A stretch of 64,000 nucleotides of DNA from IMG/VR virus record IMGVR_UViG_3300016476_000468, positions 103,913 through 167,912 of that record; one strand, 5' to 3'. Below are positions 20,471 to 25,685 of this stretch, piece by piece (within the stretch, counting starts at the first letter, position 1; each line of letters begins with the position of its first letter). Position numbers and translations under genes: made by a program. Source of the stretch: a virus. Its lineage: Duplodnaviria; Heunggongvirae; Uroviricota; Caudoviricetes. The notes beneath the pieces were generated by a model. That model worked only from the letters and a program-made list of their open reading frames with translations, did not search any database and was not told the origin of the DNA.

Positions 20471-20530
20471 AGTATTACTTTTACCCTACTGCAAGTAGGG
20501 TATTGACTTTTCGATAGGTTGATGTATAAT
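20470..20530 (+). promoter_or_regulatory. PeSL-like cassette copy 1: GTATTACTTT box, hairpin CCCTACT-GCAA-GTAGGG, promoter TTGACT-N16-TGTATAAT
   Basis: Shared architecture with copies at 25686, 28135, 29436, 38405. Confidence 0.65.
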
Positions 20531-20556: not shown

Positions 20557-20760
20557 ATGGCTGAGATCAAAATGGGTACGGTCTACCGAGTAGACATTAT
20601 CGAATCTGAGCGTGGTTGGGGACAGAAGATCGATGAACAAAAGTTCTTCGACAACTTCGAAGAGGCTGCTGCATATATCGAACGATACAATGCGAGTCTC
20701 CCCGCTGGTCCTGCTCCCGACTGGTATATGATGGCTCGTGGTCCTTACAAGGTGAATTGA
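20557..20760 (+). CDS. hypothetical protein (67 aa)
   Basis: ORF with GGAG RBS downstream of early promoter. Confidence 0.45.
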   Translation: MAEIKMGTVYRVDIIESERGWGQKIDEQKFFDNFEEAAAYIERYNASLPAGPAPDWYMMARGPYKVN

Positions 20761-20762
20761 TT

Positions 20763-21071
20763 ATGAAAAAGATTGTTGTTGCTGCAATGGTTGTTGCACT
20801 GTCCTGCTCCGTCTACGCTAAAGGCGGCGGCGGTGGCGGTGGACACGGTGGTGGCGGTGGTCATGCTAGTTCTGGCGCACACTCCAGTTCTTCTGGTGGA
20901 CACGCTAGTTCTGGCGGTGGTGGTAAGGGAACTTCCTCTGGTAAGAGTGCATCGGTTGCACCTGAGCCGAGTCGTTCTTCCACTACAAGTTCGACTAGCA
21001 GCTGGTTCCCTTGGTTTGGTGGCGGTTCTTCCAAGCAAGAAGAAAAGTGTAAAAAAGAGAAAACCTGCTAA
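20763..21071 (+). CDS. small secreted Gly/His/Ser-rich protein with signal peptide
   Basis: MKKIVVAAMVVALSCSVYA signal peptide, then GGGGGGGHGGGGGH... low complexity, C-terminal CKKEKTC. Confidence 0.5.
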   Translation: MKKIVVAAMVVALSCSVYAKGGGGGGGHGGGGGHASSGAHSSSSGGHASSGGGGKGTSSGKSASVAPEPSRSSTTSSTSSWFPWFGGGSSKQEEKCKKEKTC

Positions 21072-21128
21072 AAATTTCCTATATAAAACAGGGTGGGTGG
21101 TCTGCCCTACGATTCTAAGGAGTTTAGA

Positions 21129-22103
21129 ATGAAAACTGGTATATTCATTGGGCGATTCCAGCCTGTTCATCACGGTCATATCCATGCTATTGGTGTGGCT
21201 GCATCCCAAGTACAGAAACTGTACATCCTCATTGGTTCCGCTAACCAATGCCGTAGTATCAAGAATCCTTGGACGTATGAAGAACGCAAGCAAATGCTTT
21301 CGTTGAAACTTCACGCTGAGCGTATCACGAACTATGAAATTATTCCCCTTAACGATTATCGTTATAGCGATACGCAATGGATGTCTGACGTCCGCGCTAC
21401 TATCGAACACTTCAATATGGGTGCACCGATTCTGTTCGGTCACATCAAAGAAGGTAATGATTACCTGAAGTGGTTCCCTGAATTAAAATTTAAGAGCATT
21501 GAGGCTCAATATAATATCGATGCAACTCACATTCGTGAGGAGATGTTTAAGAATGACGACCCTCTGATGCCAGAAACTGTCCGAGGCGACTATGCTTTCT
21601 ACCAAAAAGAAAAACAACTCTTCAAAGATTATCCATTCCCCGAAACTCTCAACTTCAATTGCTCTGATGCGATCCTCGAATGCCAAGGACATGTGCTTCT
21701 CATCCAACGCAAGTTCAGTCCAGGTCGAGGTGCTTGGGCACTTCCAGGAGGTTTTCGCAACCAGCGTGAAACATTTCTTGACTGTGCCATCCGAGAGTTG
21801 ATTGAAGAAACTAACGTGCGAGTCCCTGAGAAAGTTCTCCGTGGCTCTATCGTGAAAACCGAATTGTTCGACAGTCCTCGTCGTTCGTTCGGTATTCCCC
21901 GAAACACCATGGCTGTGTACATGCGTATTAGTCCGAATCCTGACTACTCGCTGCCTCGTGCTAATGGTGCTGACGATGCTGCTCTGTGCAAGTGGGTGCC
22001 ACTTACTGACGCACTGAACAACATCGAGATGTATGATGACCACAAGGACATCATTTCTAAAGTAACAGGTGTTATGTCAATGCCTGCATTTGCAAAACTG
22101 TAA
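21129..22103 (+). CDS. natV: bifunctional NMN adenylyltransferase / Nudix hydrolase (NadM-Nudix, natV-like)
   Basis: GRFQPVHHGH (HxGH NTase motif), Nudix box GGFRNQRETFLDCAIRELIEETN; AAGGAG RBS. Confidence 0.75.
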   Translation: MKTGIFIGRFQPVHHGHIHAIGVAASQVQKLYILIGSANQCRSIKNPWTYEERKQMLSLKLHAERITNYEIIPLNDYRYSDTQWMSDVRATIEHFNMGAPILFGHIKEGNDYLKWFPELKFKSIEAQYNIDATHIREEMFKNDDPLMPETVRGDYAFYQKEKQLFKDYPFPETLNFNCSDAILECQGHVLLIQRKFSPGRGAWALPGGFRNQRETFLDCAIRELIEETNVRVPEKVLRGSIVKTELFDSPRRSFGIPRNTMAVYMRISPNPDYSLPRANGADDAALCKWVPLTDALNNIEMYDDHKDIISKVTGVMSMPAFAKL

Positions 22104-22119
22104 ACGATTAGGATCGTGT

Positions 22120-22413
22120 ATGAACGAACGAATTCAAGAACTTGCTCGTCAGTCTGGTGCATATCATAAAGATGACGACGGTGAAGAAACTAAGATTGCT
22201 GTTCTAATAGGTAAGGAAGTAGAAAAGTTCGCCGAGTTGATTGTTCGGGAATGTATGGAACTTAATAGAAAACAATCCTGGGATCTTACTGGTGTGATTA
22301 TTGATGTTGAAGAAAGCACTGGTTTTGACGAAGTGTGTATGAATACTGTAAAACGAGTAAAGAATTATCTAGCAGGCGATGACTTGCTAAAACATTTTGG
22401 AGTTGAAGAATGA
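22120..22413 (+). CDS. HFGVEE-family small protein, member 1
   Basis: MNERIQELARQSGAY...KFAELIVRECMEL...KHFGVEE. Confidence 0.6.
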   Translation: MNERIQELARQSGAYHKDDDGEETKIAVLIGKEVEKFAELIVRECMELNRKQSWDLTGVIIDVEESTGFDEVCMNTVKRVKNYLAGDDLLKHFGVEE

Positions 22414-22607
22414 TTTTGAAGTATTTTAGAGAACAAATTGAAGGTGGTGCTACAGATAACTTTTTCTATGGCACTGAAATGAATGGTGAAGTTCGCATTG
22501 AGCGTCATCGTGGTAGTCTTGACTCATTCCCCACTGATCTAAAATTTACGAGAATGGTAGGAAGTGTTCCGTTCTTTACTCAAGAACATTTCGGAGTTGA
22601 AGAATGA
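22410..22607 (+). CDS. HFGVEE-family small protein, member 2 (divergent N-terminus)
   Basis: Ends ...QEHFGVEE; ATGA junction. Confidence 0.5.
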   Translation: MILKYFREQIEGGATDNFFYGTEMNGEVRIERHRGSLDSFPTDLKFTRMVGSVPFFTQEHFGVEE

Positions 22608-22831
22608 ACGCTAAAAGAGGTCTACCCCTGGAAAGCATTGCGACAGACCCTGTAAGAATGCGAGCGAGATGTGAAGCATTGGTAATTGCTATGGTAGGCA
22701 AAGATATGGCTGAGAAATGGTGGAATGGCCCAAACAAGGCATTTTGTGATGACACACCAGAACAGATTTATAGTGTAGCACCCAGTGCGGTGTATGCTTA
22801 TCTAATGCGATCAGCCGAAGGAGAATGGTAA
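22604..22831 (+). CDS. hypothetical small protein within array
   Basis: ORF with ATGA junction. Confidence 0.45.
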   Translation: MNAKRGLPLESIATDPVRMRARCEALVIAMVGKDMAEKWWNGPNKAFCDDTPEQIYSVAPSAVYAYLMRSAEGEW

Positions 22832-23004
22832 TGAACCAACGTAAAGTTCACTACATTGATGTGAGCAAAATGTCCGAAAAAGAACTATGTGAAACATTGA
22901 ACATTCCATATGTTCCGTGGTATTGTGATAGTATCTTTTGGGCATTGGCACTGGTTTTTACTGCGCCCAGTATCCTGATTATTACTTTGGAGATATTCAA
23001 ATGA
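22825..23004 (+). CDS. small hydrophobic (membrane) protein, 59 aa
   Basis: C-terminal FWALALVFTAPSILIITL TM segment; ATGA junction into next gene. Confidence 0.35.
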   Translation: MVMNQRKVHYIDVSKMSEKELCETLNIPYVPWYCDSIFWALALVFTAPSILIITLEIFK

Positions 23005-23204
23005 ACAAACGAATTAAAGAACTGCAGTTTCAAGCTGCCGCACAAGTTAATCCGTTGTTGGAAGGTTCTGAGTGGCAACAAGTGTTTGTTGAGAATTTTG
23101 CCGAGTTGATTATCAAAGAAACACTACAGGTTGCTCGTGCTGGTATAGAGTTCGGCGACGGTATGGAAGATGCTGTTTACAAATATTTCGGAGTTGAAGA
23201 ATGA
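23001..23204 (+). CDS. HFGVEE-family small protein, member 3
   Basis: MNKRIKELQFQAAAQ...FAELIIKETLQ...YKYFGVEE. Confidence 0.6.
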   Translation: MNKRIKELQFQAAAQVNPLLEGSEWQQVFVENFAELIIKETLQVARAGIEFGDGMEDAVYKYFGVEE

Positions 23205-23446
23205 ACGAACGAATTAGAGAACTTGCTAGAGAGGCTGGGTTGCCTACATACAACCCCGAAGGTATTCCAACTAAATTAGAAAAGTTCGCCGAGTTGATTG
23301 TTAGGGAATGTATTCGCATTGGCCAAGAAACCAGCAAAGATATTTTCAAAATGTCAAAGAAAGAAGGTGACATTTTTGAATATGAATCACACGGTGCAGA
23401 ACAAGTAGTTGATAATATCAAAGAGCATTTTGGAGTTGAAAAATGA
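23201..23446 (+). CDS. HFGVEE-family small protein, member 4
   Basis: MNERIRELAREAGLP...KFAELIVRECIRIG...KEHFGVEK. Confidence 0.6.
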   Translation: MNERIRELAREAGLPTYNPEGIPTKLEKFAELIVRECIRIGQETSKDIFKMSKKEGDIFEYESHGAEQVVDNIKEHFGVEK

Positions 23447-23541
23447 GCATAAGCGAAACTATCGTCATACTTGCTATGATTTCACTGTTTGCCTTGGTTG
23501 CAGTGGGTGTATATAAGTTGATTGTAAAAGGTTTTCTATGA
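23443..23541 (+). CDS. 32-aa hydrophobic peptide
   Basis: MSISETIVILAMISLFALVAVGVYKLIVKGFL; ATGA overlaps at both ends. Confidence 0.3.
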   Translation: MSISETIVILAMISLFALVAVGVYKLIVKGFL

Positions 23542-23765
23542 ACGAACGAATTAAAGAACTTGCCCAACAGGCTGGATGCAGTATTGATGGAATGGGCTAT
23601 GGCGAAGGTAATGTAGAAAAGTTCGCCGAGTTGATTATTCGGGAATGTATTGGTTGTTGTGAACAAGTTATCAGTGATCCTGTTCCTGAATCCGTGGATA
23701 GTTGGTTAAATGGTGGCGAACAATGTATCCAAGAGATTAAACAGCATTTTGGAGTTGAAAAATGA
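23538..23765 (+). CDS. HFGVEE-family small protein, member 5
   Basis: MNERIKELAQQAGCS...KFAELIIRECIGCC...KQHFGVEK. Confidence 0.6.
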   Translation: MNERIKELAQQAGCSIDGMGYGEGNVEKFAELIIRECIGCCEQVISDPVPESVDSWLNGGEQCIQEIKQHFGVEK

Positions 23766-24013
23766 AAGTTTCCAATCTACGCAAAATCACAGACCCAACT
23801 ACATTTGAACCAAGTGTAGTAGTAGATGTAGAAATCCCAAGAATGACCTTATACGAACTAACTCTAATGAAAGAGGACATTCGTAAAGACATTATCTACA
23901 CACTCGGAGCGGAGTTATTGGGACAGATTGTTGTTCAGATGGGTATGACTGATGAACAAAAGAAAGACCTAATCAAGGACTTGCTGGGAGTGAACAATGA
24001 CACCGAATCCTAA
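23762..24013 (+). CDS. hypothetical small protein
   Basis: ORF with ATGA junction. Confidence 0.45.
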   Translation: MKVSNLRKITDPTTFEPSVVVDVEIPRMTLYELTLMKEDIRKDIIYTLGAELLGQIVVQMGMTDEQKKDLIKDLLGVNNDTES

Positions 24014-24221
24014 AATCCGAGAACTCATTATGAGTATGGGCATTATTCCTGAAAGCGAACACTATGATATCGCTGAACGAGTTATTGAAGAATGTATGGC
24101 AATGTGTAAAACCGCTGTAGGCAACGCTGACTACAACACTGGCAGACTACATTGTTTAGAAAACATCAAAGAACACTTTGGAGTTAAACGATGGCACTTC
24201 GACAACTGCAAAAGTGCTTGA
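23997..24221 (+). CDS. HFGVEE-family small protein, member 6 (divergent)
   Basis: MTPNPKIRELIMSMG...VIEECMAMC...KEHFGVKR. Confidence 0.5.
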   Translation: MTPNPKIRELIMSMGIIPESEHYDIAERVIEECMAMCKTAVGNADYNTGRLHCLENIKEHFGVKRWHFDNCKSA

Positions 24222-24246
24222 CTTTTATTCAATAGTCAGGTATAAT
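24218..24246 (+). promoter_or_regulatory. early promoter TTGACT-N17-GGTATAAT before nadV
   Basis: Consensus -35/-10. Confidence 0.6.
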
Positions 24247-24290
24247 TAACTTACTCCGAGACGGTCTTGGGGAATTTTTAGGAGCTAAAA

Positions 24291-25685
24291 ATGAGCATTT
24301 CAAAATCAATCATTCTAAACACCGACAGCTATAAAGTTAGCATGTTCAAACAGTATCCTGCAGGTACGACTGGTGTTTATTCCTATATTGAATCACGTGG
24401 TGGACGCTATGATCGCACTGTGATGTTCGGTCTCCAAGCCTTCATTAAGGAGTATCTACTTGATCCAATTACCCAAGCCGACATTGATATTGCTGATGAG
24501 ATACTCACTACTCACGGAGAACCCTTCAACCGAGAAGGATGGGAATATATCCTACGTGTCCACGATGGTTATCTCCCAGTCGTTATTCGTGCAGTTCCTG
24601 AGGGTACAGTGGTTCCTGTTAAAAATGTTTTGGCTACAATTGAAAACACGGATCCTGAATGCTATTGGTTGACTACTTATCTGGAAACTGCTCTTCTGCG
24701 TGCAGTCTGGTATCCAACCACTGTGGCTACTCAAAGCTACACCATTCGCAAAGTGATCATCGAATATCTGGAGAAAACTGGTGACCCTAGCCTTATTGAT
24801 TTCAAACTGCACGACTTCGGTGCTCGTGGCGTTTCTTCTATGGAAAGCGCAGGAATTGGCGGTGCTGCCCACTTGGTTAACTTCATGGGTACTGATACCA
24901 TCACTGGTCTTCTGTATGCTCGTGAGTATTACAATGCTGGTATTGCTGCTTTCTCTATCCCTGCCGCAGAACACAGTACCATCACCAGCTGGGGTCGTGA
25001 CAACGAAGTAAAAGCCTATGACAACATGCTTACTCAGTTTGCTAAGCCTGGTAGTATCGTTGCAGTGGTCAGCGATAGCTATGATATCTTCAACGCTGCA
25101 TCTAAACTCTGGGGTGAAGAACTCAAGCAGAAAGTTATTGACAGTGGCGCTACTGTTGTCATCCGTCCAGACTCTGGCGATCCTGATACTGTTTGCCGTA
25201 AACTTGTAGAAATTCTCGGTCAAAAGTTCGGCTACACTGTCAACGATAAAGGATACAAGGTTCTGAACAACGTCCGCATTATCCAAGGTGACGGTGTCAA
25301 TGAACAAACTATCCGCACCATCCTAGGTGGCTTTGCCGCATACGGTTGGAGTGCAGATAACATTGCATTCGGTATGGGTGGTGCTCTGCTCCAACAAGTC
25401 GATCGTGACACCCAGAAGTTCGCAATGAAGTGTTCTGCTGCTTTGATCAACGGTGAGTGGGTTGATGTGCAGAAAGATCCTGTCACTGACTCTGGTAAGA
25501 AGTCTAAGGCTGGTCGTGTGCAACTTTGGGAAAGTGGTGGTGAGTTTATCTCTTCTGTCAATCGTCCCAATACTTGGACTGATCGTGGAACTGCTTGGGC
25601 ACCTGTGCTGCAAGAAGTATTCCGTGACGGTAAACTTGTAACCGAATACACCTTCGAGCAAGTCCGAGCCAACGCTAAAAAGTAA
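24291..25685 (+). CDS. nadV: nicotinamide phosphoribosyltransferase (NAMPT / NadV)
   Basis: 464 aa; NAMPT-like motifs (HDFGARG, GTDT, SIPAAEHST); pairs with NMNAT. Confidence 0.8.
   Translation: MSISKSIILNTDSYKVSMFKQYPAGTTGVYSYIESRGGRYDRTVMFGLQAFIKEYLLDPITQADIDIADEILTTHGEPFNREGWEYILRVHDGYLPVVIRAVPEGTVVPVKNVLATIENTDPECYWLTTYLETALLRAVWYPTTVATQSYTIRKVIIEYLEKTGDPSLIDFKLHDFGARGVSSMESAGIGGAAHLVNFMGTDTITGLLYAREYYNAGIAAFSIPAAEHSTITSWGRDNEVKAYDNMLTQFAKPGSIVAVVSDSYDIFNAASKLWGEELKQKVIDSGATVVIRPDSGDPDTVCRKLVEILGQKFGYTVNDKGYKVLNNVRIIQGDGVNEQTIRTILGGFAAYGWSADNIAFGMGGALLQQVDRDTQKFAMKCSAALINGEWVDVQKDPVTDSGKKSKAGRVQLWESGGEFISSVNRPNTWTDRGTAWAPVLQEVFRDGKLVTEYTFEQVRANAKK

Follow-up and report, generated by a model that had tools for sequence, protein, structure and literature searches.

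The stretch of viral DNA considered here, 64 kb in length and referred to as the window (IMG/VR record IMGVR_UViG_3300016476_000468, positions 103,913 to 167,912), contains an array of ten consecutive open reading frames (ORFs) of 32-97 amino acids that fill positions 22120-24221 on the + strand. The explanation favored here, held with somewhat more than even confidence, is that the locus is a chain of small, early-transcribed genes in a variable region of a freshwater T4-like myovirus, i.e., an early, translationally chained cassette array in which homology patches embedded in the coding sequence would drive modular shuffling. The T4-type proteins encoded in the window are a tail sheath, the gp20 portal, UvsW, a gp47/gp46-type nuclease, a DNA ligase, a family B polymerase, and a DnaB-type helicase. 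Six of the ORFs are designated F1 to F6 in their order along the DNA (Table 1). P-numbers denote database relatives, which are proteins, and L-numbers denote the loci compared.

A gene of the array family is built as block-cassette-block-cassette-block, where the head block comprises the first approximately 8 codons, the middle block the codons for EKFAELIVREC, and the tail block the last approximately 7 codons plus the stop. Within the window, all three are confined as DNA to positions 22120-24221. The head block ATGAACGAACGAATTAAAGAACTT occurs at 4 sites versus 0.00 expected, the middle block GAAAAGTTCGCCGAGTTGATT (site form AAGTTCGCCGAGTTGATT) at 4 sites versus 0.03 expected, and the tail block CATTTCGGAGTTGAAGAATGA (search form TTYGGAGTTGAAGAATGA) at 5 sites versus 0.21 expected. 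Codon choice in the blocks was compared with that in the variable parts of the same genes, which served as background, for approximately 300 distinct members from diverse loci. In the head block, asparagine is encoded by AAC in 92% of cases (background 43%), arginine by CGA in 95% (26%), and leucine by CTT in 77% (17%). The middle block uses AAG for lysine (89% versus 34%), GCC for alanine (89% versus 25%), GAG for glutamic acid (81% versus 21%), and TTG for leucine (87% versus 29%), and the tail block uses GGA for glycine (96% versus 32%) and GTT for valine (90% versus 47%). In blastn comparisons between otherwise unrelated loci, the blocks alone match, over 40-60 nucleotides and at 85-98% identity. 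The blocks are thus conserved at the nucleotide level, including the synonymous sites, and not just as protein.

An earlier note on this DNA, made from the sequence alone, had described six paralogues sharing three elements. The ten ORFs lie where it had placed them and the repeats are real, with the family being smaller than proposed: a family profile hidden Markov model (HMM) run on the window detects five ORFs only, i.e., F1, F3, F4, F5, and F6, at E values of 2e-16 to 2e-41. All three blocks are complete in F1, F3, F4, and F5 only. From the family, F2 has nothing but the tail EHFGVEE and the junction. Since orthologues of F2 elsewhere end in ...FFRPCAYDEQGGEQGWAER, in the tail of the 83-amino acid ORF of the array, or in short unrelated tails, and since the family HMM does not match it, F2 is a non-member that carries a grafted family tail. 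In F6, the last gene, the blocks are degenerate and the stop codon of the tail is gone (GAA TGA has become CGA TGG), so that 9 extra residues (HFGVKRWHFDNCKSA) follow and the ORF continues to a stop within the -35 box of the nadV promoter; promoter 24218 overlaps this stop. A vestigial GGAG-N8-ATG persists in the F6 tail at 24181-24194, and orthologues of F6 in L017 end in ..ERFGVE. The 3' end of F6 (24174-24221) has the look of a terminal array junction that has decayed. The two short hydrophobic peptide ORFs among the ten are as the note had described them.

The stop codon of each gene had been claimed to overlap the start of the next. This holds for eight of the nine internal junctions, which are ATGA or TAATG overlaps, the exception being a 17-nucleotide overlap between the 83-amino acid ORF and F6. 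The tail block reads CAT TTC GGA GTT GAA GAA TGA, and its glycine and valine codons form a GGAG placed 8 nucleotides ahead of the next ATG. Across the family, the ATGA overlap is found at the end of 222 and at the start of 272 of 292 members; as a consequence of this overlap, residue 2 of the family proteins is Asn, Lys, Ser, or Thr, all with codons starting with A. The best example of a complete junction element (23187..23224) is 91-98% identical to junctions of the otherwise unrelated loci L066, L056, and L064. The loci contain the tail motif 192 times, in every case on the strand of the genes, and 22 of the 192 sites terminate ORFs to which the family HMM finds no match. A second portable tail is formed by the last approximately 24 residues of the 83-amino acid ORF (..EDKKQLIKDLLGVNNDT(K/E)S; window 23940-24013). 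It is fused directly after HFG in the family members P0019, P0043, and P0114, it is present on an F2-like gene (L020 10264-10509), and the next gene likewise has its ribosome-binding site and start within it, the sequence ..LLGVNNDTES putting a GGAG 6 nucleotides before the ATG of F6. The C-terminal "motif" of the family is, to a large part, the ribosome-binding region of the next gene, with which it travels. The tail block would double as the translation-initiation region of the following gene, and translation would be passed on from gene to gene. The translational coupling along the array that had been suggested from the overlaps is consistent with this junction anatomy.

The relatives of the window genes are combinations of N- and C-terminal cassettes. 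Database proteins that recombine cassettes of the window itself are P0081 (N part of F4, C part of F1), P0074 (F1 and F5), P0031 (F4 and F6), P0055 (F5 and F4), and P0114 (F3 and F5, followed by the tail of the 83-amino acid ORF). Among 405 parsed proteins, 247 N types and 190 C types are seen in 304 combinations, and one C type, the C cassette of F5, is joined to 49 N types. The earlier note had advised a check for breakpoints at the repeated junctions; nucleotide alignment places a crossover inside the invariant middle block: genes of L017 and L015 are F4-like up to this block and F5-like after it. In P0134, P0135, and P0138, unrelated N-terminal sequences are joined at the middle block, and P0169, P0153, P0193, and P0204 are read-through fusions that extend beyond the tail. 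The same recombinant proteins recur on several independent contigs. The copy number, for which a comparison among related phages had been proposed, does vary, from 1 to 12 per locus and always on one strand, among 80 IMG/VR loci of at most 20 kb each. The array does not have the appearance of a diversity-generating retroelement target, as the cassettes vary in length and are unalignable and the blocks are the sole repeats of the array, no search for a reverse transcriptase having been made. As a side observation, the read-through extensions of P0169, P0153, P0193, and P0204 are rich in cysteine and resemble zinc ribbons (e.g., CPLCGEDGGTTCGMPGC); zinc-ribbon-like small genes may often be located downstream of family members.

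Of the two patterns that the earlier note had offered, recombination-driven expansion is borne out by these data, and rapid evolution in the sense of fast point substitution is not. Within one cassette type, differences are mostly synonymous. The ratio of nonsynonymous to synonymous substitution rates (dN/dS) is 0.11 for the C cassette of F5 (dS 0.85, n = 23), 0.08 for F6, and 0.17 for the 75-amino acid ORF, the overall ranges being 0.08-0.17 for dN/dS and 0.6-0.85 for dS. From a dN/dS of approximately 0.1 it follows that these are real, constrained proteins under purifying selection, and diversification is by shuffling rather than by fast point mutation. The comparison with L012 (IMGVR_UViG_3300016667_000188) points in the same direction. 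Over 17.6 kb, the window and L012 diverge by approximately 10%, yet a tract of about 3.5 kb (~21500-25000) has a single difference and the array itself is without point-mutation divergence. The ends of the tract are within natV and nadV, the genes that flank the array, and it follows that the whole array was recently exchanged via homology in these flanking genes. This indicates a very recent homologous exchange that moved the array as a whole between two phage lineages.

Early transcription had been proposed from the sequence, and the promoters of the window agree with it. Six perfect TTGACTTTT-N-GTATAAT promoters are found, versus 0.11 expected, all of them on the + strand. The coding strand is without a TTGACT..TATAAT site within 22120-24217, the blocks do not contain such hexamers, and no terminator-like hairpin is found on the + strand inside the array. 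The late promoter TATAAATA is absent from the window, and late-type ATAAATA motifs are located near structural genes only, with none near the array. Consensus promoters of the sigma-70 type at 20503 and 24218, with none on the coding strand in the array, argue for one early polycistronic unit, of which the array would probably be part and which would extend from ~20530 to ~24250.

Table 1. Features of the array and its surroundings; positions are those of the window
Feature	Position	Strand	Evidence or remark
Perfect promoter sites	20503, 24218, 28212, 29487, 34192, 38504	+	motif scan
Stem-loop (20482-20502), then consensus early promoter TTGACT-16-TATAAT	20482..20530	+	likely start of the transcription unit of the array
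natV-like gene, bifunctional nicotinamide mononucleotide (NMN) adenylyltransferase/Nudix; upstream flank	21093..22103	+	Pfam CTP_transf_like and NUDIX on the identical gene of JGI contig L001
F1, 97-amino acid family member with all three blocks	22120..22413	+	HMM E 4e-24; identical to P0086
F2, 65-amino acid ORF of another small family (..GGATDNFFYGTE..RIERHRG..)	22410..22607	+	no match to family HMM
75-amino acid ORF (..WWNGPNKAF..TPEQ..), unrelated to the family	22604..22831	+	80% identity in other T4-like contigs
57/59-amino acid ORF with C-terminal hydrophobic helix	22825..23004	+	orthologues in L042 and L036 at 71-77% identity; JGI start 22832, giving a TAATG overlap
F3, 67-amino acid family member (MNKRIKEL.., ..NFAELIIKET.., ..YFGVEE)	23001..23204	+	HMM E 2e-16; start is ATG 23001, not the TTG upstream
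F4, 81-amino acid family member	23201..23446	+	HMM E 4e-31; AlphaFold2 (AF2) predicted local distance difference test (pLDDT) 81, three helices
32-amino acid hydrophobic peptide ORF	23443..23541	+	gene call in JGI contig too
F5, 75-amino acid family member with the commonest C cassette (IGCCEQVISDPVP..)	23538..23765	+	HMM E 2e-41; AF2 pLDDT 77
83-amino acid ORF, tail ..KKDLIKDLLGVNNDTES, second portable 3' module	23762..24013	+	ORF list
F6, 74-amino acid divergent family member, last gene of the array	23997..24221	+	HMM E 2e-20
Complete junction element, best example	23187..23224	+	tail TTCGGAGTTGAAGAATGA, ATGA overlap, head ATGAACGAACGAATT..
Other tail blocks	22396-22413, 22590-22607, 23429-23446, 23748-23765	+	motif scan
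Other head blocks	22120-22143, 23001-23024, 23538-23561	+	motif scan
Middle block AAGTTCGCCGAGTTGATT, crossover point of N and C cassettes	23282..23299; also 22225-22242, 23094-23111, 23619-23636	+	motif scan, alignment
Early promoter TTGACT-17-TATAAT, then stem-loop with T run (24254-24272), upstream of the nadV-like gene	24218..24272	+	layout like that of a promoter early stem-loop (PeSL) element
nadV-like gene, nicotinamide phosphoribosyltransferase (NAMPT); downstream flank	24291..25685	+	Pfam NAMPT_N and NAPRTase on the identical JGI contig

Both flanking genes are assigned by their Pfam domains to salvage of nicotinamide adenine dinucleotide (NAD), in agreement with the position first proposed for the array. 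A CobT-like protein of the window is 34% identical to cyanomyovirus counterparts, and no close relative of the window was found by megablast among the deposited phage genomes of INPHARED. The 75-amino acid ORF has a small family of its own (..WW.S.NKAF...TP..), present in more than one copy per phage (L011 1857-2045 and 3313-3540; L017 1-174), and it accompanies the F2-like gene in two or more differing genomic contexts. Upstream, an ORF of 104 amino acids (20757-21071) encodes a hydrophobic leader followed by a long low-complexity sequence rich in glycine, serine, and histidine; it is the gene that diverges most between the window and L012 (76% nucleotide identity).

The array family is large. 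A profile search yields more than 7800 clusters at 90% identity, and an exhaustive search at E <= 1e-3 yields 6371 clusters at 50% identity; the family is present in more than 490 IMG/VR stretches. The core genes that adjoin the arrays differ between phages (natV/nadV, ligase, others). Neither the ten ORFs of the window nor 50 diverse members are matched by the profiles of Pfam-A, PHROGs v4, or NCBIfam, stray chance matches (e.g., GerD in 1 of the 50 members) set aside. A profile search of the PDB gave nothing significant. Its best hit (E 0.027), to the PARP14 macrodomain, is tempting beside NAD-salvage genes; as it covers a 23-residue helix at a domain E value of 7.5, it was dismissed as chance. 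Foldseek against the PDB found no match below E 2.5, and the matches in BFVD are only to uncharacterised "uncultured Caudovirales phage" proteins, which are themselves family members. None of the databases searched gave a functional hint for the family, including any for the anti-defence or host-interaction role considered in the earlier note, and a literal motif search of the full-text literature found no mention of it. Among 185,579 species genomes, the family is found in bins of metagenome-assembled genomes (MAGs) of freshwater taxa only, including Aquiluna, Rhodoferax, Luteolibacter, and Haliscomenobacter; these copies are probably mis-binned phage contigs and do not point to a host. Apart from such freshwater bins, the family was seen in metagenomic phage contigs only. 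Tblastn against 50,697 phage records of INPHARED gave no significant family match. One weak match led to a divergent, unannotated member in MW202520.1, a circular, metagenome-derived genome of 33.6 kb from Manatee Spring (L106 2911-3249, MNDRIKELAEQAG...IERFAELV..., in an annotation gap), which also has erf, SSB, and RusA-type genes. From its presence in this small phage it follows that the N-terminal half of the family reaches beyond T4-like phages.

According to the explanation favored here, the homologous recombination system of the phage itself would use the blocks as short patches of homology. A crossover within a block would exchange one half of a gene, remove or duplicate a gene as a whole, or leave the family tail on an unrelated neighbor, as in F2, and the outcome would be a combinatorial repertoire drawn from a large pool of unrelated cassettes. 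The proteins may, with low confidence, act on host targets early in infection. Four points weigh against it. The recent 3.5 kb tract ends in natV and nadV, not at the family blocks. Some of the database mosaics could be chimeric assemblies, a concern that is countered by exact repeats of at most 26 nucleotides and by identical recombinants on several independent contigs. The synonymous conservation of the head and tail blocks could partly be a translation-initiation constraint; the middle block alone is without this alternative. Finally, protein folding may be the reason for the conservation of the blocks, of which recombination would then simply take advantage. A bolder version, according to which the three blocks would be dedicated, selected recombination signals in coding sequence and the cassettes would be combined on one helical-hairpin scaffold, deserves mention, even if it is unlikely. 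If it were true, hundreds of N cassettes times hundreds of C cassettes would yield, in aquatic phages, an ever-changing repertoire of small early binders, e.g., inhibitors of host defence or takeover factors, and the array would be the phage counterpart of antigenic-variation loci.

The concern about protein folding leads to the alternative of an ordinary paralogous family that arose by tandem duplication and divergence, in which the blocks are the folded core and the DNA features are by-products. The AF2 models of F5 and F4 have the same three-helix layout; for proteins of ~65-100 amino acids, a short helix at the N-terminus is predicted to pack against a helical hairpin. The head block corresponds to helix 1, the middle block to the beginning of helix 2, and the tail block to the end of helix 3, so that the three would come together where the hairpin has its base; the variable cassettes supply the tip of the hairpin and the segment that links helix 1 to helix 2. 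Of 384 members, 370 have the cysteine of ..REC and 326 the histidine of HFG, and the purifying selection on the cassettes would fit a folded core as well. On the other hand, synonymous sites in the blocks are fixed far past the background codon usage of the same genes, the cassettes are unalignable and occur in many combinations, which is not a pattern of divergence after duplication, and the tail is present on unrelated ORFs. Taken together, this makes an ordinary paralogous family quite unlikely as the full explanation. In about a third of the members, a C-x3-C pattern in helix 2 is combined with C-x6-H in helix 3; the geometry of this Cys3His subset would suit a possible metal site stapling the hairpin. 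As a family-defining feature a zinc site was rejected, being restricted to that third.

Conservation of DNA inside coding sequence could also stem from a signal in the RNA, be it an operator shared for a translational repressor or a nuclease at the GGAG-type initiation regions, or a long-range pairing that masks each start codon until the ribosome translating the gene before it gets there. The head and tail blocks do surround the start codon and the ribosome-binding site, and a duplex of 16 bp (-14.6 kcal/mol, z = -3.7 versus shuffles) is possible between the consensus forms of the head and middle blocks. This pairing is, however, absent from the minimum-energy folds of F1, F3, F4, and F5. Among 229 distinct members, one-sided changes usually break pairs, and double changes are not in excess (26 versus 16-48 in slid-register controls), i.e., there is no covariation. 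Rfam has no match anywhere in the array. The head-middle pairing was discarded as unsupported, and an RNA signal appears improbable as the basis of the blocks.

In view of the T4-like nature of the carrier phage, the N-terminal ~10 residues might instead be a capsid-targeting leader such as that of the T-even internal proteins, and the family would be a repertoire that is carried in the phage head and enters the host along with the DNA, e.g., against host defences. MNERIKELA at the N-terminus is the best-conserved protein segment of an otherwise hypervariable, multi-copy family, and its I-x-E motif resembles the cleavage consensus of the T4 prohead protease. Such a leader leaves the conserved middle and tail blocks unexplained, and position 10, which would match the T4 cleavage site, is not conserved. 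The array has no late-type promoter near it, the ATAAATA motifs preceding structural genes, and a divergent member resides in MW202520.1, the 33.6 kb genome in which erf, SSB, and RusA-type genes are found. No search detected similarity to T4 internal proteins. A capsid-targeting leader is, hence, highly doubtful.

Metagenome assembly across short repeats could in principle have produced the repeats, a possibility that the earlier note had named as refuting its reading, or the mosaic relatives, but this can hardly be true: all data do come from metagenome assemblies, and blocks recur both within a phage and among phages that co-occur, but the array is identical in three independent assemblies from different assemblers (JGI 3300016667, ENA ERZ27292648, and ERZ1744930), its longest exact repeat of 26 nucleotides is well under the final k-mer to which the contig name k141_573047 points, and recombinant proteins occur on many contigs from several sources.

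A family that comprises thousands of clusters, with as many as a dozen copies in one phage, and yet is absent from Pfam, PHROGs, and NCBIfam and near-absent from deposited phage genomes, represents a sizeable piece of freshwater viral "dark matter". It offers a natural system for asking in what way the gene repertoires of phages are shaped by short patches of homology, to what extent the conservation of small phage proteins is a constraint at the level of DNA or translation, and whether phages keep combinatorial libraries of small host-directed proteins. It also carries a practical warning, as C-terminal "motifs" such as FGVEE can be the ribosome-binding site of the next gene.

Among known systems, the pilE/pilS loci of Neisseria consist of one expressed locus and silent donors, from which gene conversion moves cassettes for antigenic variation. 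There, as in the array, multiple tandem copies are found, with hypervariable mini-cassettes set between short conserved blocks that guide recombination. In contrast to pilE/pilS, the copies in the array are all full ORFs that seem to be expressed, and the exchange observed is one between genomes, not a programmed switch. The gp38 adhesins of T2/T6-type phages share with the family the alternation of conserved motifs with interchangeable hypervariable segments in a small protein (Trojet et al. 2011, PMC3157838). Gp38, the conserved motifs of which are glycine-rich, is a single-copy tail-fibre adhesin with four such segments (PMC3157838), whereas the array family has multiple copies, is early and, judged by its context, non-structural, and has no sequence relationship to gp38. 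The internal protein loci of T-even phages are likewise tandem small genes with a short conserved N-terminal leader that are otherwise highly polymorphic, and IPI* is an anti-restriction protein, as far as these loci are described in PMC3012670 (citing Repoila et al. 1994). On that account internal proteins share the leader only, whereas the array family keeps three blocks and is without a late promoter.

The closest parallel is provided by the hyperplastic regions of T4-type phages, in which short conserved motifs mediate modular shuffling (PMC2839356, PMC4122927). The motif in question, PeSL, consists of an intergenic sigma-70-type promoter and a terminator stem-loop (Arbiol et al. 2010, PMC2839356; Comeau et al. 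2014, PMC4122927). Like PeSLs, the array patches are short DNA motifs that recur among the small and non-essential early genes of a T4-like phage, they are exchange points for unrelated sequences, as is evident from the crossover in the middle block, the cassette combinations, and the tail on unrelated ORFs, and exchange at them would yield insertions, deletions, and replacements. Elements resembling PeSLs are located in the window at the edges of the unit only (20482-20530 and 24218-24272). The array patches differ from PeSLs in lying inside coding sequence, at the start, middle, and end of the gene, without a promoter or stem-loop; they permit the exchange of half-genes as well as whole genes, and they also encode the conserved core of the protein and, at gene ends, the ribosome hand-over signal. 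The most economical reading, and on balance probably the right one, is that the array represents a coding-embedded version of the modular shuffling that takes place in T4-type hyperplastic regions.

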